The position numbers were made by a program, and so were the translations under genes. A stretch of DNA of 64,000 nucleotides from Oligoflexia bacterium. Its GTDB lineage: Bacteria; Bdellovibrionota; Bdellovibrionia; JABDDW01. Where the stretch lies: positions 4,739 through 68,738 of the forward strand of contig JAYTHU010000031.1 of assembly GCA_043732305.1 (NCBI GenBank), given 5' to 3'. The notes beneath the pieces were generated by a model. The model was not told the DNA's origin. It did not search any database and saw nothing but the letters and a program-made list of their open reading frames with translations. Of the stretch, positions 1 to 52,865 are shown piece after piece; the stretch's first letter is position 1; every line of letters begins with the position of its first letter.

Positions 1-867
1 TTTTGAACAACCGGCTTTTTCCATTTTTTGCATCAGTGGGACGAGTGCACTTTCTGATGATGATGTCCCAAGAACCAAAAGAATTTCTTCTTTGATATAG
101 AATAAAAATTTAAAAATATTAAATCGACAGTAAACTCCCACGAGTCCTAGAAATGCAAAAACGAAAATCACACAGGTTAGGTAAAAACATCCCATCAAAG
201 ATGCTAGTGGCGCAAGCGCGTGAAGCCCGTATTTTCCAATGGTGAAAGCCATGGCCCCGCCGGCACCAAGTGGCGCAAGCATCATGACGGTTTTCATCAT
301 CGCAAATAAAACTGCAGAAAGTTTTTCGATCAGATCGTGAACTGTTTTTCCGGACTCACCAATCTTATTCATCGCATAACCAAAGAGAACGGCAAGAAGC
401 AAAACTTGTAAAAGATCGCCTGATCCGGTGAACGCTTCAACAAAAGTTTTTGGAACTATGTGAGCAACAATACCGACAAGACTATTTCCATATCCACCGG
501 CCACATTCGCTTTTTGAGTGTACTGAGAAACAGCGGTTGCATCGAGGGTCAGTGGATTCACATTGAAGCCTTTGCCTGGCTTCAACACGTTTGCAATCAA
601 GAGCCCAAGCGCAAGAGCGATTGTCGAGAGCACTTCAAAATACAGAAGTGTTTTCAGACCAACTCGACCAACTTTTTTCATGTCGCCCGCGCCAGAAATT
701 CCCAAAACCACGGTACAGAAGATGAGTGGAGCAATCAGCATTTTGATCAGAGAGATAAAAGTATCTCCCAAAACTTTCAGCTGCACACCCACGTCTGGTG
801 CAAAAAACCCAATGAGCGCGCCGGTTGCAATGCCAATGAGTACCCATAAATAAAGATGTTTAGTCAT
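1..867 (-). CDS. dctA: C4-dicarboxylate/amino acid:cation symporter (DAACS family), 3' end outside window
   Basis: Reverse-strand translation from ATG at 865-867 gives MTKHLYLWVLIGIATGALIGFF...LIKMLIAPLIFCTVV...AMAFTIGKYG, nearly colinear with the E. coli DctA N-terminal half. The frame stays open to position 1, so the gene is partial. The three small ORFs at 460-853 are shadow frames of it. Confidence 0.8.
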   Translation of the reverse strand, partial: MTKHLYLWVLIGIATGALIGFFAPDVGVQLKVLGDTFISLIKMLIAPLIFCTVVLGISGAGDMKKVGRVGLKTLLYFEVLSTIALALGLLIANVLKPGKGFNVNPLTLDATAVSQYTQKANVAGGYGNSLVGIVAHIVPKTFVEAFTGSGDLLQVLLLAVLFGYAMNKIGESGKTVHDLIEKLSAVLFAMMKTVMMLAPLGAGGAMAFTIGKYGLHALAPLASLMGCFYLTCVIFVFAFLGLVGVYCRFNIFKFLFYIKEEILLVLGTSSSESALVPLMQKMEKAGCSK

Positions 868-1696
868 TTGATTTTTGACTGCGACCACAAACTTGAGGAG
901 CCCGGAAAAATCTTTTTTGTGATTTCACTGTGAGGCAAAGATCATCTTGAGCACAACCGGCCACCGGCAATGATTCAGTGGGAATCAGACGCGGCGGTTG
1001 TTTACCTTTTGGAATCGGAACAATAGACCAAGTCCCTTTGGTGGTGACCTTGAGCCACACACCTTCAATATCTAAACTTTTAAATATGTCATTGCCCGAA
1101 ATAAACCAAGGGCCATCATCCATGGGCAGCGCCCAGGATTTAAATGGTACACCTTTTTTATTTACTTCATTCAGAGTGAGAACTTCTAGCCCCGAGTGAT
1201 GAAGCTTAAATTTCTTGAGCTTGCCATTGGTGGTCAAAATAGAAATACTTTTTCCACCCTCTATTTGTGAGGCAAACACCTGATGAATTCGTCCCTGACA
1301 CGTGGATTTACAATTATTGTAAACAATTTGATTTTGGTCTGCAAAACTTGGATCGATCATAAGCGAAAGTGGAAGACCGTTCTTTTTTCTCCACTCTTGA
1401 ACTGTGAGAGCAAATTGCTTACGGTTACCCTGACGCAACAAATGATCATTTACAGTTGTGCCAAGATCTTTTCTGAACGTCATGTATTCTTTTTGAGGCT
1501 GACAAGTTTTTGGGATCACGGGATCAGGAGAAGGCGCCACCACGACGGCGGGTTGCGTGGGCGGGACAGCAACAACCACTACCGAAGGAGCGGGCGTAGC
1601 TGTCAATTCTTTTTTCATTTTTTTTGCGTAAAATGCGGACATAACGAGTAGCGCCACAAGTAAGATCAAAGAAACTAGCGAGGCATTGCGCTTCAT
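860..1696 (-). CDS. hypothetical membrane-anchored protein with Pro/Val-rich linker
   Basis: 278-aa ORF with an N-terminal hydrophobic anchor, then PAPSVVVVAVPPTQPAVVVAPSPDP. No family recognised. Its stop overlaps the dctA start by 8 nt. Confidence 0.5.
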   Translation of the reverse strand: MKRNASLVSLILLVALLVMSAFYAKKMKKELTATPAPSVVVVAVPPTQPAVVVAPSPDPVIPKTCQPQKEYMTFRKDLGTTVNDHLLRQGNRKQFALTVQEWRKKNGLPLSLMIDPSFADQNQIVYNNCKSTCQGRIHQVFASQIEGGKSISILTTNGKLKKFKLHHSGLEVLTLNEVNKKGVPFKSWALPMDDGPWFISGNDIFKSLDIEGVWLKVTTKGTWSIVPIPKGKQPPRLIPTESLPVAGCAQDDLCLTVKSQKRFFRAPQVCGRSQKSND

Positions 1697-2736
1697 TCTA
1701 TACGCGCGGCCATGCGAGCGTCAAACTTAGTGAGCCATCTGTCTTCTTCGGCGGGAATAGTTTCGCCCACAATTTTTCTTTCACGCAAATCCTGAGCACG
1801 CTCAGCTTCTTTGCGTTCACGTTCGCGAATTTTTTCTTTTTCGAAAAATTCCGTTGTGGTAGTGATTGTTCCCAGTTCTTCAGTGATGGAGAGGAGTTCA
1901 TTTTCGCTATCGGAATATGATTTTCCAGACGGAAGACCAATCTTATCACTCAATGTTCCAAGAGTTTCTGATTCTAAACCCGTGACATCACTGTTTTCTC
2001 CGATGCCTTCAGGAATGAGCTCGTCAATTTCACTAAGTGTAGGAAGTTCGCGAATATTTCTGAGACCAAAAAGTTCCAAAAATTTTCGACTGGTTCCGTA
2101 GAGCATGGGCTTTCCAGGCAAATCTGATTTTCCAGTAAATTTAATGAGATCTTTTTCCATCAGAGCGCGAACCAAATGTCCAGATTCAACTCCGCGAATT
2201 TGATCAACTTCAGCTTTCACAACGGGTTGCTTGTAAGCAACGACGCTCAAAACCTCAAGCGCAGGGCCTGATAGTTTAAACGGACGAGCCTTCACCATGC
2301 GTTTGATCCAAGGAGAATTATCCATCTTTGTTCTCAGCTGAAATCCACCGGCCACTTCTTCTAAAGTGATCCCACGATTTCCCCCTGCATATTCGGTTTG
2401 CAAAAGATCGAGAACATTTTTAACTCGGTCAGTGTCTACGTTTGTTCCGTAAAAAAGTGCCGCAATAGTTTTCACACTCATAGGATGCGGAGAAGAAAAC
2501 AACACGCTTTCCACAATAGATTGAGTTTCTATCGTGGTAAGTTCAGAAGGTAAAATTTCTTCCACTAATTCAAGAGCAGGATTGCTTAAATTTGCAGTTC
2601 TCGTCTCTTCGCTGACTTCAACAAGTTCAGCGCTTTCTTCCGGAATATCCATAGCCATTTCCAGATCCATCTCTTCTGTTAGACCTAAACCGATTTCTTG
2701 ATTTTCAGTATTTTCTAAATTTTCCATTTCGCTCAT
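1693..2736 (-). CDS. scpB: segregation and condensation protein B
   Basis: Central region FQLRTKMDNSPW...RPFKLSGPALEVLSVVAYKQPVVKAEVDQIRGVESGHLVRALMEKDLI is the ScpB winged-helix signature. 4-nt overlap with scpA upstream. Confidence 0.85.
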   Translation of the reverse strand: MSEMENLENTENQEIGLGLTEEMDLEMAMDIPEESAELVEVSEETRTANLSNPALELVEEILPSELTTIETQSIVESVLFSSPHPMSVKTIAALFYGTNVDTDRVKNVLDLLQTEYAGGNRGITLEEVAGGFQLRTKMDNSPWIKRMVKARPFKLSGPALEVLSVVAYKQPVVKAEVDQIRGVESGHLVRALMEKDLIKFTGKSDLPGKPMLYGTSRKFLELFGLRNIRELPTLSEIDELIPEGIGENSDVTGLESETLGTLSDKIGLPSGKSYSDSENELLSITEELGTITTTTEFFEKEKIRERERKEAERAQDLRERKIVGETIPAEEDRWLTKFDARMAARIE

Positions 2737-3785: not shown

Positions 3786-4835
3786 TTACTTTCCCCTTGT
3801 GTTACTGATTCCCATGGAGCCTTTGACCATCTTCATAGTCTCTGCGGCTTCCGCTTTTGCCCGAGAGCATCCATCGCCAATGATTTCATCAAGCTCTACT
3901 GGATTATTCAAGAGACTTTTTTTCTTTTCGAGAGGTTCTTTCATAAATTGATTGATATTGGCCGCTAATTTCAACTTGCAATCGCCGCAACCAATGGCCG
4001 CAATCCGGCAATCTCGGTCGATCTCGGCTCGTTCTTGATCATTGGAAAATAGTTTGTGAAACGAAAAAACGGGACAAACATCAGGGTTTCCGGGATCGTC
4101 ACGTCTGACGCGCGCAGGGTCGGTCACCATCTTTTTAGTGATGGTAAAGACTTCTGCAGGCTCTGCAAGCAGCGGCATAGTGTTGTTATAGCTCTTGCTC
4201 ATCTTTCGGCCGTCGAGACCAGGCAGCACCGGTGTTGAGGTCAACATGGCTTCAGGCTCAGGAAGTTTTCCTTTGTAGAGAAAATTAAATCTTCTTACAA
4301 TTTCGCGGGCAAGCTCCAAATGCGGAACTTGATCTTGCCCCACCGGAACTTTATTTCCTCTGAAAAGTGCAATATCCGCCGTTTGCAGCACTGGATAGGA
4401 ATATCTTCCAAGATTGTGTGCGTCTTTGAGCTTCATCTCCTCTATGGAATCTTTCCAGGTCGTGACACGGTCGAGCCAACCGAGCGGTGTCAGCAGATTG
4501 AAAATCTGATTGAGTTCGAGAAGTTCAGGGATTTCACTCTGGATGAAAATCACGGATTTCCGAGGATCGACACCAAAAGCTATCCACTCGGCAATAATGA
4601 CGCGATTGAATTTATAAAAATAATCCGGAGTCTTGTAATGATCAGTTAATGCGTGCCAATTCATGGCGCCAAAAAAACACTGATAGTTTTTCTGCAGCTC
4701 GACCCAATTTTTCAGCGCGCCAAAGTAATTTCCAATATGAAGCTGATTGGTCGTGCGCATTCCGCTAAGCACTCTTTGCGGTGACTTGATGGGTTTGCCA
4801 TCGGTTAGGTTTTTAATTTCAGGAGAGGCCGACAT
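3786..4835 (-). CDS. trpS: tryptophan--tRNA ligase (class I aaRS) with Cys-rich C-terminal extension
   Basis: HIGNYFGAL (HIGH-type motif) and KMSKS motif. Overall TrpS-like length and order. Extra CPVF...GCGDC Cys cluster at the C-terminus. Confidence 0.75.
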   Translation of the reverse strand: MSASPEIKNLTDGKPIKSPQRVLSGMRTTNQLHIGNYFGALKNWVELQKNYQCFFGAMNWHALTDHYKTPDYFYKFNRVIIAEWIAFGVDPRKSVIFIQSEIPELLELNQIFNLLTPLGWLDRVTTWKDSIEEMKLKDAHNLGRYSYPVLQTADIALFRGNKVPVGQDQVPHLELAREIVRRFNFLYKGKLPEPEAMLTSTPVLPGLDGRKMSKSYNNTMPLLAEPAEVFTITKKMVTDPARVRRDDPGNPDVCPVFSFHKLFSNDQERAEIDRDCRIAAIGCGDCKLKLAANINQFMKEPLEKKKSLLNNPVELDEIIGDGCSRAKAEAAETMKMVKGSMGISNTRGK

Positions 4836-5501
4836 TTACATGACTCCAAAAAGAGTCAGACTACTTGAGAGCATGAATTCAGCTGTTTTAATCACAGGAG
4901 TAAAAATAATTTTACCGAATCCACCAAAAATAAATAGCGCAATCAGCACGATGCTAAAAACTGGTTGGAGCTCTTCTAACTTTCGATTCATTTTTTCTGT
5001 CAAAAAGATGGCAATAATTTTTCCACCATCGAGTGGATGAATGGGGATTAAATTAAAAAATGCCAATGACAAATTTATCATGATGAAAGTTTTTGCAAAT
5101 TCGACAATCGCATGAGAGAAGGTGGCATTCTCAAAAAATCTCAAAGTTCCTGCAAAAATTAGAGTGCCAATGATCGCCATGATCACGTTTGATGCCGGCC
5201 CAGCACTCGCAACCAGCGCCATTCCCGCGCGACGATTTTTGAAGTTTCGATCATTCACCGGCACAGGCTTTGCCCATCCAAAAAAAGGCGCACCAGTTGT
5301 GATAGCAATAATCGGCAGAATAAATGTTCCTAAAATATCCGCATGTGCGAAAGGATTTATTGTGAGGCGCCCCATAAGTTTGGCGGTGTTGTCACCAAGC
5401 CTCGCTGCGACAAATCCATGAGCGTACTCATGCACTGAAAGGGCAAACAAAAACGGGATGAGAAACATCCCAACTCTAACGGCGGTATCGGCTATATCCA
5501 T
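4836..5501 (-). CDS. M50-family (site-2 protease-like) membrane zinc metallopeptidase
   Basis: HEYAHGFVA HExxH motif inside a polytopic hydrophobic protein. Second motif LDGGK is typical of peptidase M50B. Confidence 0.7.
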   Translation of the reverse strand: MDIADTAVRVGMFLIPFLFALSVHEYAHGFVAARLGDNTAKLMGRLTINPFAHADILGTFILPIIAITTGAPFFGWAKPVPVNDRNFKNRRAGMALVASAGPASNVIMAIIGTLIFAGTLRFFENATFSHAIVEFAKTFIMINLSLAFFNLIPIHPLDGGKIIAIFLTEKMNRKLEELQPVFSIVLIALFIFGGFGKIIFTPVIKTAEFMLSSSLTLFGVM

Positions 5502-6488: not shown

Positions 6489-7514
6489 CTAGATTAAAAA
6501 TTTGGCGACGGAGATGAGATCGGATTTTTGGAAATAGCTGGATACGTACGGGCATTTAGTTGTTAGCAAACACATCACGGGTTTGGCCAATTGTTTTTGA
6601 TGATCAGAGAAGAGATAAAAATTTGCTTGGCCTTTGCTGATGATCAAATCGCATTTCTGAAGGGCTTCTTCTAATTCGGGAGATTTTTCTTCCCATGAGA
6701 TTCCGAGGGTGTCCGGACCGGCGCAAATAATCATGTCGGCATAATCTTGCATCTTCACATAGAGTCCATCTTCCAATGTCGCATCACTGGTGATGGGGCC
6801 GCCGCGCAGAGCACTCATCACAAACCAACCGCGAGCGCGTAAATCTGCAATCAGATAACGATCAAACGCAATCTCGCCAACATTGTCATGAATAAAAAGG
6901 GCATGAGGTTTTGCAAAATTATTATGATGAGGCGCCGATCTTGCGCCAGGATTTTGAGGGCTCGACGTTCCGCCCAATCCCATAGTACCGCCTATTCCAC
7001 CGTCAGAAACGGCAGCATTCATAGCCCATGTTTTTGGAACTTCGTTTACAAATTTATAAAAAACGGGAAGGTCATTCACTTGAAGGGGTTCACGCACTTT
7101 AGTCAAAACATGTTCTTCGATCTTAGCGATCGGCACTTCATAACCGGTGCCAACGGTTCTGAAATCAAGATGATTGGACGCAATCACCCATTTCACCAAA
7201 GTTTCAAAACGTTCCAACGTGTCTGGCATTGAAGCTAGTTTCAATGCGAGCTTATCAGATAGCGCGAGCCCAACATCGTTGCAGTTTTTTCGAAGCTGTT
7301 CGAAAGGAAGTCTTTGGCCCGTGACTTTTTTAGCTATGCGGTGAACTTCTGTGATGTAAACGCTAGGCAAAGTGTCGAAATTGAAATTTTCGCTGAGATA
7401 TTTCATCGCCTGGTTCATAACCGTGAGCTGAGTGGCATTGTCCACACCCATGAGTTTCACCGCGCCTGAGATATCGTCTATAATGCAACCGGCACAACCT
7501 TGCTCAGCTTTCAA
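6489..7514 (-). CDS. DUF89/ARMT1-like damage-control phosphatase family protein
   Basis: C-terminal motif LIISKGQANFY and overall size (341 aa) are typical of the DUF89 (ARMT1-like) family. Confidence 0.6.
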   Translation of the reverse strand: MKAEQGCAGCIIDDISGAVKLMGVDNATQLTVMNQAMKYLSENFNFDTLPSVYITEVHRIAKKVTGQRLPFEQLRKNCNDVGLALSDKLALKLASMPDTLERFETLVKWVIASNHLDFRTVGTGYEVPIAKIEEHVLTKVREPLQVNDLPVFYKFVNEVPKTWAMNAAVSDGGIGGTMGLGGTSSPQNPGARSAPHHNNFAKPHALFIHDNVGEIAFDRYLIADLRARGWFVMSALRGGPITSDATLEDGLYVKMQDYADMIICAGPDTLGISWEEKSPELEEALQKCDLIISKGQANFYLFSDHQKQLAKPVMCLLTTKCPYVSSYFQKSDLISVAKFLI

Positions 7515-8028: not shown

Positions 8029-9180
8029 TTGTTCAAGGAGATCCCCATGTCTTTCCTATCCGAAGATGAAACCGCATTCCGTATGGCCGTCCGTGAATTT
8101 GCTGAAGGTCAAATCAAGCCTTTGGTTAGTAAAATGGATCATGAAGCGCAGATGGATGCCGGCTTAGTAAAGCAATTTTTCGAAATGGGACTCATGGCTA
8201 TCGAATCACCAGAAAAATACGGCGGCACTGAATCTAGTTTCTTTAATGCCTGCTTGGCAGTCGAAGAAGTTTCCCGCGTCGATGGATCATGCGGTGTTTT
8301 AGTGGACGTTCAAAACACTCTCGTCACGAACGCATTTTTAAAATGGGGCAATGAATCTCAAAAAGAAAAATATCTCAGCAAAATGTCACGCGAATGGGTT
8401 GGCGCATACGGCCTATCTGAAAGTTCCAGCGGATCAGATGCATTCGCTCTTCAATGTCGAGCCGAGAAAAAAGGCGAAAAGTGGATTTTGAACGGCCACA
8501 AACTTTGGATCACCAATGCAAAAGAAGCTGAATTATTTTTAGTTTTTGCAACCGTTGATAAAACTCTTGGCTACAAAGGGATTACCGCTTTCATAGTTGA
8601 AAAGTCTTTTCCCGGATTCACTATCGGAAAAAAAGAAGACAAGATGGGCATCAGAGCGTCTTCCACATGCGAATTGACTTTTGAAAACTGTGAAGTTCCT
8701 CTCGAAAACGTCATGGGCGATGTTGGCAAAGGTTACAAAGTGGCTATCGAAACTTTGAACGAAGGCCGCATCGGAATTGGTGCGCAAATGGTTGGAGTCG
8801 CTCAAGGTGCATTCGACATGACATTGAATTACATCAAGGGCCGACAACAATTTGGGAAATCTATTTCTGAATTCCAAGGCGTGCAATTTCAGTTGGCCGA
8901 AATGGCCATCAGCTTAGAGAGCGCGCGATTGATGGTTTATCACGCCGCTCGATTGAAAGACGCAAAACAGCCGTTCTTACGAGAAGCCGCGATGGCCAAA
9001 TATCATTCAAGCAAAGTCGCTGAAAAAGTAGCCTCGATGGCCGTTGATCTTTTGGGTGGAAATGGATTCACCAAAGAATATCCTGCCGAGAAATTCTACC
9101 GCGACGCCAAGATTGGCCAGATTTACGAAGGCACGAGCAACATGCAGCTCCAAACCGTCGCAAAATCATTCCTCGGGTAG
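8029..9180 (+). CDS. acyl-CoA dehydrogenase (short/branched-chain type)
   Basis: ACAD fold motifs (GxxGSDA-like SESSSGSDAF, YEGTSNMQL...) and 383-aa length. Start may be M7 (MSFLSEDE). Confidence 0.8.
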   Translation: MFKEIPMSFLSEDETAFRMAVREFAEGQIKPLVSKMDHEAQMDAGLVKQFFEMGLMAIESPEKYGGTESSFFNACLAVEEVSRVDGSCGVLVDVQNTLVTNAFLKWGNESQKEKYLSKMSREWVGAYGLSESSSGSDAFALQCRAEKKGEKWILNGHKLWITNAKEAELFLVFATVDKTLGYKGITAFIVEKSFPGFTIGKKEDKMGIRASSTCELTFENCEVPLENVMGDVGKGYKVAIETLNEGRIGIGAQMVGVAQGAFDMTLNYIKGRQQFGKSISEFQGVQFQLAEMAISLESARLMVYHAARLKDAKQPFLREAAMAKYHSSKVAEKVASMAVDLLGGNGFTKEYPAEKFYRDAKIGQIYEGTSNMQLQTVAKSFLG

Positions 9181-9259
9181 GCCGGTACGCCGTACCATAT
9201 CCGGAGTTGTAATCGATTTAAAAACAAATGTAGTTCCGGATATGGTACGGCGTACCGGC
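9181..9259. repeat. 25-bp perfect inverted repeat (GC-rich hairpin, 29-nt loop) immediately after ACAD stop
   Basis: Arm 9181-9205 gccggtacgccgtaccatatccgga is exactly complementary to arm 9235-9259 tccggatatggtacggcgtaccggc. No T-run follows. Confidence 0.8.
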
Positions 9260-9266
9260 TTAAACT

Positions 9267-10397
9267 TTGCAATTAATGGGATCAATGAAGTACAAAATCG
9301 ATCAAAATAACTCGAGGCTTGCCATATTGATTTTGGCGACATTCACGATGACAGCCTTTGTCATTGCGATGCCTGTTTTTGCTCATGCCGGCGACGTCAT
9401 CAACTGCACGTTTAAATTAAACAAAATCCGTTCGACAGAAGCCATTGATACCGTCGGAAAAACCGATATTGCCAATGGTGGCGAGATTATGATGGAGAAG
9501 CCCTTCGCACTAAAATCGTGGAGAAACGCGAACCTTTGGAAACAATTCAAAGCGTTCCCTGAACTATCTGTGCTGAGAGGAAATCAAGCCGTCGAAAGCC
9601 AACGTCAGTCGGAAAAAGGATTTTCACCCCCATTCCACACAGCTTCGGGTGCTCGAATTTTATTGAGAAGAGCAATCCTCACCGAACTTGCCTATTTTCA
9701 TCCCGATCAAGTGTCAGAGCACTTCTTCACTTCAAAACTCCTTAGCCCTGAAGCCAAGGGAATATATCTAAAGCAAATTGAACTCAAACAACTGCTCAGT
9801 GAATTAAAAAGACATCCTGCGCTTGGTGCACACAACATTGAACTGCTAATGAGAACACAAGACACGTTAATGATTGTTGCTGGCTACTGGAGAAGTTTCG
9901 TGATTCGTAGACCCGTGGACCTTCGCGGCGAATATGAAGCGGCGAAACTCGCTAACAGTGAGCTTGAAAAAGAGACCTCAAAAATATTTGGCATTCTCTA
10001 TGGTTATTTAAATCATGCCGCCGAAGCTGCAGCTACGTTCGAAAGACAAAACCGAACGTATTATTATTCTAAGGTTTTGGAATATCTTACTCAGCTCAAA
10101 CCAAGCGCATTCGCCCAAATAGCTTACGAGCGGTACAGTAAATTTAGATTAGATTCCAAAACTGAGACGCTAGCGCAGCCACCTCACCTCAGCGATCTCC
10201 ATGACATGGCAGTTAGAACACAAACGGAAATTGAAAATCGTCGTGGCGAAGATTTGGCGAAACGCGAAAAAGTCAGAATGAATATGATATTGATTCAAAA
10301 CCCACAAGCTGTGACCTCAGGAAATAAGGCGACCCTCACGGCCGTTTCTAGAGAGACCGGCGATACTCCCCGCCCACTTCAAAAAGACAGTGAGTGA
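9267..10397 (+). CDS. hypothetical secreted protein
   Basis: N-terminal signal-like segment (probable start [20 protein letters not shown]... at 9285). No recognised domain. 3' end overlaps the convergent icmF by about 50 bp. Confidence 0.45.
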
Positions 10398-49755: not shown

Positions 49756-50439
49756 CTAAAAATGATAAATTCCCAAGAAAACCAGTCCACCGAGTAGCGC
49801 AAATGCTGCTCCCCGTTTGCCAGCTGCAGAAATAGGCAGAAGCTGTGAAAACGTGATGTACACAAGAATCCCGCCTGAAATGGGCAAGAGATACTCCTGC
49901 CATTGCGAGAAAATCGAAGGAGCAAGCAATCCCAAACCTAATGCAGATAGCACGATTCCTAAAGACATGAGAGCTCGCCAAACTGTGGCTCCAGCGGCTA
50001 ATGCGACCCCGAAAACAATCAATGATTCAGGGATGAGATGGAAAATTTGCCCAATTAAAACTTTTTGTCCCAAACCTGTGCTCGATAGAAAAGTAGTTCG
50101 AATGGCCACTCCGTCAAACAGCGCACAGAAAGTAAGACAACCAACCGTCGAACAGGCCGCAGCGACATCCAGCAAAGGCGCATGCGAATGCCCATGACCG
50201 TGGTCATGCGAATGATCATGATGAGAACAAGAATCTACACTGGTATTTAAAAAATTGAGATGAGGGGAAACAAATCGATCGAAGATAAATACTAAAACAA
50301 CGCCCGCCAGGATCCACGGCGAGCGATTTTTTACTGTAGGAATGAGATCGATGAAAATCAGCGCGGATAAGTAGCCCGTGCCGAATGCCATCATGGACCT
50401 TAATATTTTATTTGATGCTAGGCTTTTTTCGCTTTTCAA
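49756..50439 (-). CDS. zupT: ZIP-family zinc transporter with His-rich loop
   Basis: Polytopic membrane protein with loop CSHHDHSHDHGHGHSHAP. Conserved ZIP TM motifs (HLIPESLIVFG...). The start may be MMAFGTGYL at 50394. Confidence 0.7.
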   Translation of the reverse strand: MKSEKSLASNKILRSMMAFGTGYLSALIFIDLIPTVKNRSPWILAGVVLVFIFDRFVSPHLNFLNTSVDSCSHHDHSHDHGHGHSHAPLLDVAAACSTVGCLTFCALFDGVAIRTTFLSSTGLGQKVLIGQIFHLIPESLIVFGVALAAGATVWRALMSLGIVLSALGLGLLAPSIFSQWQEYLLPISGGILVYITFSQLLPISAAGKRGAAFALLGGLVFLGIYHF

Positions 50440-50701
50440 GACTTCTCTTTATTTTCACCAAGCGCGCGGAGAGATTTTCTTCACGAGCTTTGAAAATGGC
50501 ATTGGCAATTCCGCCCTGCTTTTGAATTGTCTTGATTCCGTTAGCAGAAATCTTCAAAGTGATCGAACGCCCGATCTCTTCAATGATATATCTCTTGTGA
50601 GTGATATTTGGCAGCCAACGCGTTCTATTTTTATTGTTCGCGTGACTGACCAAGTTTCCTGATCTGGGACCGATACCGGTAAGTTCACAAAATTGAGACA
50701 T
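50408..50701 (-). CDS. rpmB: 50S ribosomal protein L28
   Basis: [33 protein letters not shown]...ISANGIKTI aligns with E. coli L28 along its length. Confidence 0.8.
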   Translation of the reverse strand: MSQFCELTGIGPRSGNLVSHANNKNRTRWLPNITHKRYIIEEIGRSITLKISANGIKTIQKQGGIANAIFKAREENLSARLVKIKRSLEKRKKPSIK

Positions 50702-51255
50702 TATTCAGCTCCTCGTTGATGACCACCACCGAAACCACCACCGCCGTGTCCACCACGGTCTCCACGATCGCCTCTATCATGCCCGCCGCCAAATCCACCG
50801 CCGCCGCCACGATCAAAACCGCCGCCACCGCCGCGATCTCCACCGTCACGGCCGCCGCCGAAACCGCCGCGACTTCCGCGATCACGATAGCTGCTTTGTT
50901 GTTCTTCGTAGTTGATATATTTTGTTCCAACAGGAAGAAGTGCAAGTGTGCGAGCACGTTTAATGTGCACTTTTAATGATCTTTGTTGTTTAGCACTCAG
51001 TCGGCTCACACGAGCAGGAATAATTTTTCCATGTTCGGTAACAAACGGTCTGAGACTTTCAGGATCTTTGTAATCGAAAACCAAATCGACTGCGGGACGT
51101 GGTCGTCCTCGGCGTCCTCCGCCTCGGAATCCTCCGCCTTTTTCATCGCCACCGTCACGGCCGCCACCATCGCGTCCGCCACCGTCACGACCACCAGCAC
51201 TTCGGTCAGAACCGTGTGCGCCTCTTGAATCTCTAGTTTCTCTTTGTTCTCTCAT
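50701..51255 (-). CDS. rpsR: 30S ribosomal protein S18 with Gly/Arg-rich (RGG-type) N- and C-terminal extensions
   Basis: Core [53 protein letters not shown] is S18. About 50 aa of GGRDGGG repeats precede it and ~65 aa of [18 protein letters not shown] repeats follow. The shadow ORFs here are repeat artefacts. Confidence 0.75.
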
Positions 51256-51434: not shown

Positions 51435-51533
51435 AAAATAAACCTTTCTTGATCTTTATCTGAGCGCTTGAAATTACCCCTACTCCCCGCTATTTTGCAA
51501 CTGTAAATATTTAAATAATAAGGGAGCGGTTCA

Positions 51534-52865
51534 TTGACTCAATCATCACACACACCAAACGCATCAAAACTTCTGATTAAAAACTGTGATCTTTGGACAA
51601 CGTCAGAGGTGAAAGTCGCTCAAGACATCATCGTTCACGATGGAAAAATCGTCGATATTTATCCATCTTCGATCTCAAACGGTGAAAATTTTCATGATCA
51701 CGTCGTGTATGAACCCAAGGACGCATTGATTCACCCACTTGGCGTTGACCCTCAAGCCCACTTGCGTGTTCCAGGTCAGAGTCAGAAGGAAACAGCCGAG
51801 ACCGGTATCAAAGCAGCGCTTCGCGGGGGTTACGGGGCTCTTCTCACCATGCCAAACACTCAGCCTGTAATTGATACTCCGGAAATTTGTGACATCGCCA
51901 TGAAAGAACTTAAACCCTGGATGGACAAACTCGGGGTGAATGTCTATTTGTCTGCCGCCATGACAGTGGGGCAAAACGGAAAAATGCCAGTCGAAGGACT
52001 CTCGCTTAAAAAATGGGGCGTGAAAGCACTGACTGATGACGGGAAAGGCCTGGCCTCTGACGAACTCATGGAAAAACTTTTTCAAATTTCAGAGCAGACA
52101 GGTCTTCCTTTGCTTCAGCACGCAGAATTTCCTGGTCACGGAGGTGTTCTTGCTCCGGGGAGCGTGCAAAAGAAACTTGGCGTGAAGCCCTATTTTGCTG
52201 ATCCTGAAGTTGAAATGGTAAAAAGAGACATCGCGCTATTGAGAAAACATCCAAAAGCGCATTATCACGTGCTTCACGTCTCAAGCGCGCAGACAATTGA
52301 ACTTGTAGCCCAGGCTAAAAAAGAAGGATTGCCCATCACTTGTGAAGTTTGCCCTCACCATCTTTTATTCACCACAGAAGACATCCGTGAAAACGATAGC
52401 TCGTTTAAGATGAATCCACCTCTGAGATCAGCCAACGACCGCAAAGTTTTACAGCAGGGTTTAGATGAAGGAATTATTGATTTTGTTTCGACTGATCATG
52501 CTCCGCACGAGGCATCATTAAAAACTCGCGAATTCACTTCTGCGGCCTTCGGAACAACGGGACTGGAAACTGCGCTGAGGGCATTGCTGTTTTTAGAAAG
52601 CGAAAATCTACTCTCGAAGAAAAGAGTGGTTGAAACGTTCTCTCACCGCCCGGCCATGTTTTTGAAAATTGAGAATGAGATCAGTCAACTTTCTAAGGGA
52701 GATTTTTTTCATGCAGTGATTGTCGAAAATAAATCCAAGGCCACTAAAATAGAAAAAGCTGATCTAGCCAGCCTTTCTTCGAACAATTGTTTCCTAGAAT
52801 TTGCAATGCCCGGGAAAATCACTAGGGTCTACAATAGAAAAGGCCAATTTGATTTCTCAAATTGA
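51534..52865 (+). CDS. dihydroorotase-like cyclic amidohydrolase (PyrC paralogue-like) with altered first metal-site motif
   Basis: Amidohydrolase fold with STDHAPH and HVLHVSS blocks. The canonical N-terminal D.H.H motif reads DPQAH. TTG start at 51534. Confidence 0.6.
   Translation: MTQSSHTPNASKLLIKNCDLWTTSEVKVAQDIIVHDGKIVDIYPSSISNGENFHDHVVYEPKDALIHPLGVDPQAHLRVPGQSQKETAETGIKAALRGGYGALLTMPNTQPVIDTPEICDIAMKELKPWMDKLGVNVYLSAAMTVGQNGKMPVEGLSLKKWGVKALTDDGKGLASDELMEKLFQISEQTGLPLLQHAEFPGHGGVLAPGSVQKKLGVKPYFADPEVEMVKRDIALLRKHPKAHYHVLHVSSAQTIELVAQAKKEGLPITCEVCPHHLLFTTEDIRENDSSFKMNPPLRSANDRKVLQQGLDEGIIDFVSTDHAPHEASLKTREFTSAAFGTTGLETALRALLFLESENLLSKKRVVETFSHRPAMFLKIENEISQLSKGDFFHAVIVENKSKATKIEKADLASLSSNNCFLEFAMPGKITRVYNRKGQFDFSN

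Follow-up and report, generated by a model that had tools for sequence, protein, structure and literature searches.

The rpsR locus

The window analyzed here is a 64,000-nucleotide stretch of contig JAYTHU010000031.1, from an assembly of an Oligoflexia bacterium (GCA_043732305.1). On its reverse strand lies rpsR, which encodes a ribosomal protein bS18 of 184 amino acids (aa) with a core of ordinary composition, long extensions rich in glycine, arginine, and aspartate on both sides of this core, and no cysteine. The gene sits between rpmG (L33) and rpmB (L28), the latter followed by a gene for a ZIP-family metal transporter. A dihydroorotase homolog diverges from rpmG, and a gene for a long-form S14, rpsN, lies beyond it. 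Coordinates are collected in Table 1. The initial annotation had described an S18 open reading frame (ORF) with Gly/Arg-rich extensions at both ends, and the ORF, the profile matches, and the composition bear this out.

Table 1. Positions of the features discussed in the text, in the window and in related sequences
Sequence	Feature	Coordinates	Strand	Evidence or remarks
Window	rpsR, cysteine-free bS18, 184 aa	50701-51255, including stop	-	ATG start; PF01084 and TIGR00165
Window	N-terminal extension, aa 1-53	51097-51255	-	Composition; AlphaFold pLDDT
Window	S18 core, aa 54-118 (65 aa)	50902-51096	-	Pfam match; AlphaFold
Window	C-terminal extension, aa 119-184 (66 aa), and stop	50701-50901	-	Composition; AlphaFold pLDDT
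Window	Last four rpsR codons, CGA GGA GCT GAA (RGAE)	50704-50715	-	Contain GAGGAG
Window	Degenerate repeat in N-tail	51147-51189		15-nt period, 2.9 copies
Window	Repeat in C-tail	50790-50838		24-nt period, 2.0 copies
Window	Shadow ORF	50685-50957	-	
Window	Shadow ORF	50716-50976	+	
Window	Shadow ORF	50983-51228	+	
Window	Shadow ORF	51006-51200	-	
Window	rpmG, L33, 55 aa	51267-51434	-	PF00471, 66.9 bits; NF001860, 79.3 bits; single Cys, CxxC pairs not intact
Window	rpmB, L28, 97 aa	50408-50701	-	PF00830, 73.7 bits; TIGR00009, 69.9 bits; single Cys
Window	ZIP-family metal transporter, 211 aa as called	49756-50391	-	PF02535; His-rich loop
Window	rpsN, long-form S14, 101 aa	52900-53205	-	PF00253; NF006477, 124.4 bits (cut-off 77); outside any spc-type operon
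Window	Dihydroorotase homolog, divergent from rpmG	51534-52865	+	TIGR00857, 282.9 bits
Window	Promoter-like element upstream of rpmG, TTGCAA-N18-TAATTT	51471-51500	-	Conserved in L001-L004
L001	Dihydroorotase ortholog	835-2166		
L002	Dihydroorotase ortholog	211-1530		
L003	Dihydroorotase ortholog	3-560		
L004	Dihydroorotase ortholog	8339-9652		
L098	L24 (rplX)	1633-1944		Pfam ribosomal_L24 match only
L100	L24 (rplX)	4485-4811	-	TIGR01079, 108 bits
L101	L24 (rplX)	1256-1564		TIGR01079, 99 bits
L100	L32 with four Cys	4839-5045	-	
L098	L33 with four Cys	1484-1633		
L008	S18 of Silvanigrellales, 81 aa	9971-10216		Cysteine-free
L038	rpmG immediately upstream of rpsR	7035-7513		Cyanobacterial

The identity of the protein is clear. 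Pfam PF01084 matched aa 60-107 with 69.5 bits (cut-off 21), and TIGR00165 matched with 61.6 bits (cut-off 38.75). The profile score of the canonical Bdellovibrionota S18, 100.4 bits, is above that of the window protein because profile positions 1-17, which cover the zinc-knuckle region, are unmatched in the latter. When we searched sequences of solved structures in the PDB, the top matches were bS18 chains, with E values down to 3.6e-13. None of these chains exceeds 103 aa, and even S18s of Firmicutes begin with GGRRGGRRRKK. A protein identical to the window S18 is present in both the NCBI and the Logan collections; the 6.9-kb Logan contig that holds it (run SRR23617243) may go back to the reads that also underlie the NCBI assembly and is thus not independent evidence.

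The gene is tightly fitted between its neighbors. The rpmG stop codon and the rpsR ATG are 11 nt apart, with the sequence GAGGA 8 nt upstream of the ATG, and the rpsR stop codon overlaps the rpmB start as TAATG. Within the last four rpsR codons, about 7 nt ahead of the rpmB start, is the sequence GAGGAG, so that the end of the C-tail also serves as ribosome-binding site for rpmB. Protein P0121 likewise ends in RGAE. We conclude that the ORF is the genuine rpsR of an uncultured member of the Bdellovibrionota/Oligoflexia, a placement that comes from a scan of one genome per species.

A cysteine-free S18

Ordinary S18 of this phylum binds zinc. At 22 Bdellovibrionota loci with the gene order rpsF-rpsR-x-rplI, S18 contains the cysteine motif KKVCRFC...GNCxxH (the zinc-binding or C+ form), together with an Arg/Asp-rich N-terminal extension of about 40 aa and no C-tail. 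A profile of this canonical Bdellovibrionota S18 yielded about 8000 matches, none of them attributable to the genome of the window, and 99% of the 119 parseable top hits were C+. In a published survey, S14, S18, and L28 of delta-proteobacteria are likewise tabulated as C+ (PMC3087516).

The window S18 differs at each of these sites. None of its 184 residues is cysteine; a 10-residue segment stands where ordinary S18 has KKVCRFCSDQDF, and SRLSAKQQR stands where SGNCALHQR is usual. Proximal to the core, where the KKVCRFC zinc-knuckle segment would otherwise be, is an RPRPAxDL segment, which is common to other cysteine-free (C-) S18s. In a neighbor-joining tree of a 52-aa core, which has low resolution, the window type grouped with C- S18s of the pattern SRLSAKQQR...LALLPV, apart from the C+ form of the phylum. 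The usual rpsF-(ssb/priB)-rpsR-rplI setting, a typical though not defining feature of S18 genes, is also absent, as we found no homolog of S6, L9, or SSB in the 64-kb window. Judged from its sequence, the window S18 is a C- bS18 that belongs to the "alternative ribosomal protein" class and presumably does not depend on zinc. The initial annotation had passed over both the lack of cysteine and the operon with L33, L28, S14, and ZIP, a context that we consider the more informative side of the locus.

Composition and predicted structure of the tails

Both tails stand out sharply in composition. The N-tail is 36% Gly, 25% Arg, and 11% Asp, with a net charge of +5, and the C-tail is 50% Gly, 15% Arg, 11% Asp, and 6% Phe, with a net charge of +2. 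The large ORFs of the window, for comparison, contain 6.1% Gly, 4.3% Arg, and 5.4% Asp, and in a six-frame translation of all 64 kb the rpsR tails were the sole Gly/Arg-rich stretches. Local GC content is 57-64% over the tails versus 37-45% around them.

The C-tail contains four RGG and eight RG units, and the initial annotation had called the extensions RGG boxes. We scanned the protein with regular expressions in which di- and tri-RGG motifs are RGG units 0-4 residues apart, definitions that reportedly go back to Thandapani and colleagues in 2013. No di-RGG or tri-RGG motif was found in the window S18; the same scan returned one tri-RG (aa 161-168) and four di-RG motifs. The tails are nearly charge-neutral because of their 11% Asp. 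They are thus mixed-charge, Gly-rich regions resembling glycine/arginine-rich (GAR) domains rather than canonical RGG boxes, and of the earlier description the Gly/Arg-richness holds.

In an AlphaFold model built with a 28-sequence alignment, the core (approximately aa 51-110) had mean pLDDT values of 76-95 per 10-residue block, with helices at aa 65-71, 80-83, and 88-103. Residues 7-42 and 129-180 had pLDDT below 50 and no secondary structure, and both tails are therefore predicted to be intrinsically disordered.

At the DNA level the repeats are short and imperfect. Tandem Repeats Finder reported periods of 12-24 nt in rpsR, with 1.9-2.9 copies and 81-91% matches. The longest exact direct repeat in the gene is 17 nt and not tandem: each tail has one copy of the stretch GGCGGCCGTGACGGTGG, which encodes GGRDGG (coding-sequence nt 91-107 and 400-416). 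It could be a chance recurrence in GGN/CGN-rich DNA or a trace of a C-tail seeded from the N-tail. We considered whether the gene might be a slippage-prone contingency locus and rejected this, as the repeats are degenerate (at most 2.9 copies, 81-91% identity) and no long near-perfect tandem array is present. The suggestion that such DNA is prone to length variation consequently applies between species, and not in the sense of a slippage-prone locus.

Orthologs and evolution of the tails

We recovered five orthologs, of 158 aa (P0002, from an ENA contig), 159 aa (P0003, GCA_038216925.1), 140 aa (P0004, Logan), 121 aa (P0005, Logan), and 108 aa (at locus L004, on a 286-kb contig of a long-read metagenome-assembled genome [MAG] labeled Oligoflexia). 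All five carry the Arg/Asp/Gly-rich N-tail, and the length of the C-tail ranges from about 0-3 aa up to 66 aa. Gene order is common to the loci L001-L004. Comparison with orthologs, which the initial annotation had proposed as a check, thus revealed tails of varying length and excluded a plain S18 of 75-90 aa.

Codon comparison of L001 and L002 showed how the tails change. Over the 65 core codons there were 31 synonymous and three non-synonymous differences, close to synonymous saturation. In the two tails the synonymous and non-synonymous counts were 17 versus 10 and 18 versus 8, every length difference was in frame, and the composition was kept. The tails therefore appear to evolve through in-frame insertions and deletions that preserve composition. 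The N-tail appears to elaborate an extension already present on the ordinary S18 of the phylum, and the small window clade seems to have acquired its long C-tail recently. The C-tail would be accessory, since relatives without it exist, and not required for the function of the cysteine-free class.

The clade is small: when 1.84 billion cluster representatives were searched exhaustively, only two clusters matched at E <=1e-30. A metagenome scan for further orthologs of the window type returned only distant S18s (identity at most 61%), and a search with the core alone, using a word index, gave 17 candidates. Among the S18 matches of our first search, a set biased toward Gly-rich sequences by the search method, 107 of 113 had an N-terminal extension that reached 40 aa or more and contained 30% Gly or more; most of these were C+, for example in Anaeromyxobacter. 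Long C-tails in this set were confined to the window clade and P0009.

Low-complexity tails rich in RG, RD, or GY, either C-terminal or at both ends, were also observed on unrelated S18s: P0337 (229 aa), P0381 (197 aa), P0297, P0324, and P0273, which came from the exhaustive search, and P0009. Such decoration of S18 seems to have arisen several times independently, by convergence, and its recurrence suggests that this location tolerates or favors tails of this kind. The extensions had been called unusual for a bacterial ribosomal protein. This is too broad for the N-terminal one, whose like is common on S18 of Myxococcota and Bdellovibrionota: Gly/Arg-rich in Anaeromyxobacter and others, Arg/Asp-rich and Gly-rich only in part on canonical Bdellovibrionota S18. 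It holds for the long C-tail, which is rare although it recurs on unrelated S18s. In the collection of papers available for searching, we found no account of Gly/Arg-rich extensions on bacterial bS18.

One explanation is that the tails are neutral, low-complexity expansions produced by replication slippage in GGN/CGN-rich DNA and tolerated at the solvent-exposed ends of bS18. Close relatives differ freely in how long their tails are and in tail sequence, the C-tail spanning roughly 0-66 aa and being absent altogether from some; the tails are predicted to be disordered; and they share no conserved motif beyond composition. Such free variation suggests weak constraint. However, the Gly/Arg/Asp composition (with Phe or Tyr) is kept even though the core codons are nearly saturated with synonymous change (31 of 65), and the tails themselves have more synonymous than non-synonymous changes. 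The DNA, scrambled by synonymous codon use, does not look like a fresh perfect repeat, and similar tails arose independently on unrelated S18s. Neutrality is possible, but we regard it as rather doubtful: the composition kept over long divergence, together with the convergent origin, mildly favors a function for the tails.

Genes surrounding rpsR

The genes next to rpsR point in the same direction as its missing cysteines. L33 and L28 each contain a single cysteine, and together with the long-form S14 they lie within 2.8 kb, in a cluster conserved in L001-L004; rpsN occupies the same position in L001 and L004. The ZIP gene begins 16 nt downstream of rpmB and adjoins rpmB in L001, L002, and the rearranged L003.

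In the dihydroorotase homolog, Gln replaces the His that comes first in the HxH zinc-ligand motif (VDPQAHLRVPG, compared with VDVHVHLREPG in chain 3gri). This Gln is conserved in four orthologs, and the remaining ligand motifs are kept. Zur-regulated PyrC paralogs without zinc ligands have been documented (PMC2770081), and the neighboring dihydroorotase may be a zinc-sparing PyrC variant of this sort.

Using tblastn, we found no homologs of Zur, L31, L36, L32, S6, L9, SSB, COG0523, DksA, or L24 in the window, and an Rfam scan for ribosomal leaders and riboswitches gave no matches there. We also looked by eye for Zur-type operators between the L28 and ZIP genes of L003 and, in L006 and L096, ahead of the L31 and L32 genes, and saw only promoter-like elements. 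The conserved elements that emerged have the form TTGCAA...TAATTT/TATAAA. The one upstream of rpmG, which a simple sigma-70 scan did not pick up, looks like an ordinary promoter.

Contexts of related cysteine-free S18 genes

The nearest C- relatives of the window S18 in the tree lie among genes of a similar kind. In L006 and L096 (63-65% core identity), a gene for type-B L31 is immediately upstream (133 bits, cut-off 86) and L32 is nearby. In L101 (66%), type-B L31, L24, L28, and S18 are followed by a COG0523/CobW_C GTPase with partial similarity to ZigA/MRF. L100 (60%) has L33, S18, type-B L31, a DksA-like protein without zinc-finger cysteines, L28, L24, and L32, and L098 has S18, L33, and L24. 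The type-B L31 genes beside the nearest C- relatives scored 133, 126, and 127 bits (cut-off 86). Taken together, these gene lists indicate that the class to which the window S18 belongs is associated with zinc-sparing genes.

In L098, L100, and L101, a full-length L24 gene (rplX) stands beside cysteine-free S18, L28, L33, and type-B L31, outside the S10 and spc operons. To our knowledge, L24 is not among the zinc-ribbon proteins that have alternative paralogs.

Two further arrangements were observed outside this group. In Silvanigrellales (L007-L026, L029-L031, and L034, including the isolate Fluviispira multicolorata), an 81-aa cysteine-free S18 gene stands alone downstream of mutS, without rpsF or rplI nearby. 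In a cyanobacterial MAG (L038), rpmG lies immediately upstream of rpsR, an adjacency that is general in cyanobacteria and plastids. L33-S18 adjacency by itself is therefore no sign of an alternative paralog cluster.

An alternative paralog or the only S18

We favor the interpretation, with a probability of about 0.6, that rpsR encodes a cysteine-free bS18 of the alternative type in a zinc-sparing rpmG-rpsR-rpmB-ZIP island, and that its disordered tails are genuine. rpsR is the middle gene of a tightly coupled operon beside a long-form rpsN and a ligand-deficient dihydroorotase, and the island of S14, dihydroorotase, L33, S18, L28, and ZIP looks zinc-sparing in a manner analogous to the mycobacterial operon of cysteine-free alternative ribosomal proteins (altRP). 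The window S18 would take the normal place of bS18 on the 30S platform without needing a zinc knuckle. It is probably an alternative paralog, which would coexist with a C+ primary copy in the same genome, and the chances that zinc regulates the operon seem about even.

Several observations weigh against this interpretation. No palindromic Zur-type operator was seen by eye in the rpmG/dihydroorotase intergenic region (51435-51533) or upstream of rpsN, and the 64-kb window contains no Zur homolog. The ZIP match barely passes its threshold (PF02535, 35.4 bits versus a cut-off of 35.1), the match to ZupT is weak, and ZIP transporters are in any case not zinc-specific. The related clusters are not cysteine-free throughout, as L32 of L100 and L33 of L098 each have four cysteines, and the close relatives L004, P0005, and L006 have no C-tail. 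A relocated C- S18 can therefore be a primary gene, given the apparently solitary C- S18 of Silvanigrellales and the cyanobacterial MAG, in which the primary genes are arranged as rpmG-rpsR. With regard to the missing operator, Zur boxes were likewise not found near delta-proteobacterial paralogs (PMC3087516).

The alternative to a paralog is that cysteine-free S18, L33, L28, and S14 have replaced the zinc-binding forms in this lineage and moved into one constitutively expressed cluster. Whole lineages are known to have swapped C+ for C- forms (PMC3087516). The promoter-like element is conserved and no operator is recognizable beside it, rpsR is tightly coupled in translation with rpmG and rpmB, and the window holds no second rpsR. 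The cyanobacterial and Silvanigrellales arrangements provide precedents, the latter with a solitary C- gene away from rpsF and rplI. On the other side, an S14 gene outside spc and an S18 gene outside the rpsF operon are the signature of a paralog cluster, the four genes match the altRP set, and the operon includes a metal importer. Moreover, relatives of this S18 lie next to type-B L31, a COG0523 GTPase, a DksA-like protein, and extra L24 genes, which are hardly primary copies, and the rest of the phylum keeps a C+ S18 in the rpsF operon. We therefore consider a sole-copy S18 unlikely. If the window S18 were nevertheless the only one, it would be a case in which four ribosomal protein genes were replaced wholesale and moved to a new place.

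Possible roles of the tails

On the 30S platform, bS18, bS21, and bS6 form a pocket or groove able to hold the 3′ tail of 16S rRNA with the anti-Shine-Dalgarno sequence (PMC7797042). If the S18 of the favored alternative-paralog reading occupies its usual site, its tails would extend outward from the platform, close to the mRNA exit and the anti-Shine-Dalgarno region. In structures of 30S subunits with mRNA, the basic S18 N terminus approaches the Shine-Dalgarno duplex. Flexible arms rich in Arg, Gly, and Phe could add RNA contacts of low specificity, to 16S rRNA during assembly, to mRNA leaders, or to both, and the alternating Asp would limit non-specific sticking. We infer such a role in RNA contact from the composition and the expected location.

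The initial annotation had called RGG boxes prone to phase separation; on this idea, the tails would be modules that drive condensation of ribosomes or RNA. The disordered, Gly/Arg/Phe-rich composition does resemble that of GAR domains. However, there is no di-RGG or tri-RGG motif, and with 11% Asp and a net charge near zero the tails are unlike typical cationic RGG domains. The sequence data do not bear on condensation, and the literature search found nothing on such tails in bacterial bS18. Phase separation by the tails is possible but unsupported, and we think it improbable.

An equally improbable, more speculative scenario is that the tailed zinc-free S18 marks a specialized population of ribosomes in a probably predatory member of the Bdellovibrionota. 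The operon would be induced by zinc scarcity or at a stage of the life cycle, and the tails would alter mRNA recruitment or promote ribosome clustering or hibernation. Were this true, it would be a bacterial counterpart of RGG-mediated translational control in eukaryotes, convergent on several S18 lineages.

The least tenable explanation is an artifact in which assembly collapse or a frameshift joined separate frames and the real protein is a plain S18 of 75-90 aa. The GC-rich, repeat-like DNA does have open shadow frames on both strands, four in all, as the initial annotation had noted for this GGC/CGG-rich repeat. Yet tails in frame are kept in orthologs that differ in sample and assembler, one of them from a long-read MAG; no internal Met lies near the core; and the ORF fills the stretch between a point 11 nt past rpmG and the start codon of rpmB, which leaves no flanking frames available for fusion. 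On the strength of the orthologs, the codon comparison, and the gene junctions, we rejected an artifact.

Comparison with known systems

Much work has been done on alternative zinc-free ribosomal proteins of Actinobacteria and Bacillus, and S18 paralogs have been demonstrated experimentally mainly in mycobacteria. A version in Bdellovibrionota would extend the altRP theme to a new phylum, with the rpsR operon, the metal importer, and the ligand-deficient dihydroorotase forming a compact candidate zinc-sparing island. The recurring tail decoration of S18, of which we found no description in the papers available for searching, adds a second point of interest: long Gly/Arg/Asp tails that arose more than once on a platform protein beside the anti-Shine-Dalgarno region offer a natural handle on whether disordered tails tune ribosome assembly or mRNA recruitment.

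The closest parallel is the Zur-regulated altRP operon of mycobacteria, which encodes S14, S18, L28, and L33 (PMC5912738). In M. abscessus, mrf, a factor of the COG0523 type, is also part of this operon, whose promoters are bidirectional (PMC13435785). As in mycobacteria, the window has a cysteine-free S18 away from rpsF and clustered with L28, L33, and S14, the same four proteins; and in L101, a relative of the window S18, the S18 gene is followed by a COG0523 GTPase, reminiscent of mrf. The window differs in belonging to Bdellovibrionota, in its rpmG-rpsR-rpmB order, in the ZIP importer within the operon, and in having no recognized Zur box at the operon. The proteins also differ: solved mycobacterial S18 chains have 84-88 aa and no long tails, whereas the window S18 has Gly/Arg/Asp tails of 53 and 66 aa, and its core shows no close resemblance to the mycobacterial chains (31-35 bits).

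The canonical bS18 of Bdellovibrionota and Myxococcota shares the Arg/Asp/Gly-rich N-terminal extension, exemplified by MATTNLKSDMRERSDRSNRDDRGMDKDGDDRGRRGGGFHRKK in Bdellovibrionota and by GGGYGGG runs in Anaeromyxobacter. Unlike the window protein, it is C+ (CxxC...C), is encoded in the order rpsF-rpsR-x-rplI, and has practically no C-tail, with a median of 6 aa past the core region.

Eukaryotic GAR/RGG domains, such as those of fibrillarin and nucleolin, resemble the tails in being disordered, rich in Gly, Arg, and Phe, and attached to an RNA-associated protein. In contrast to these domains, the RGG units of the window S18 are too widely spaced, and Asp alternates with Arg to leave the tails near-neutral. 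We know of no counterpart in the window S18 of the arginine methylation and nucleolar functions of eukaryotic GAR domains. The nearest likeness in architecture is to the unrelated bacterial S18s P0337, P0381, P0297, P0324, P0273, and P0009, in which one or two disordered Arg/Gly/Asp-rich tails accompany a normal S18 core. In core type and lineage they are unrelated to the window S18, and one of them is C+.

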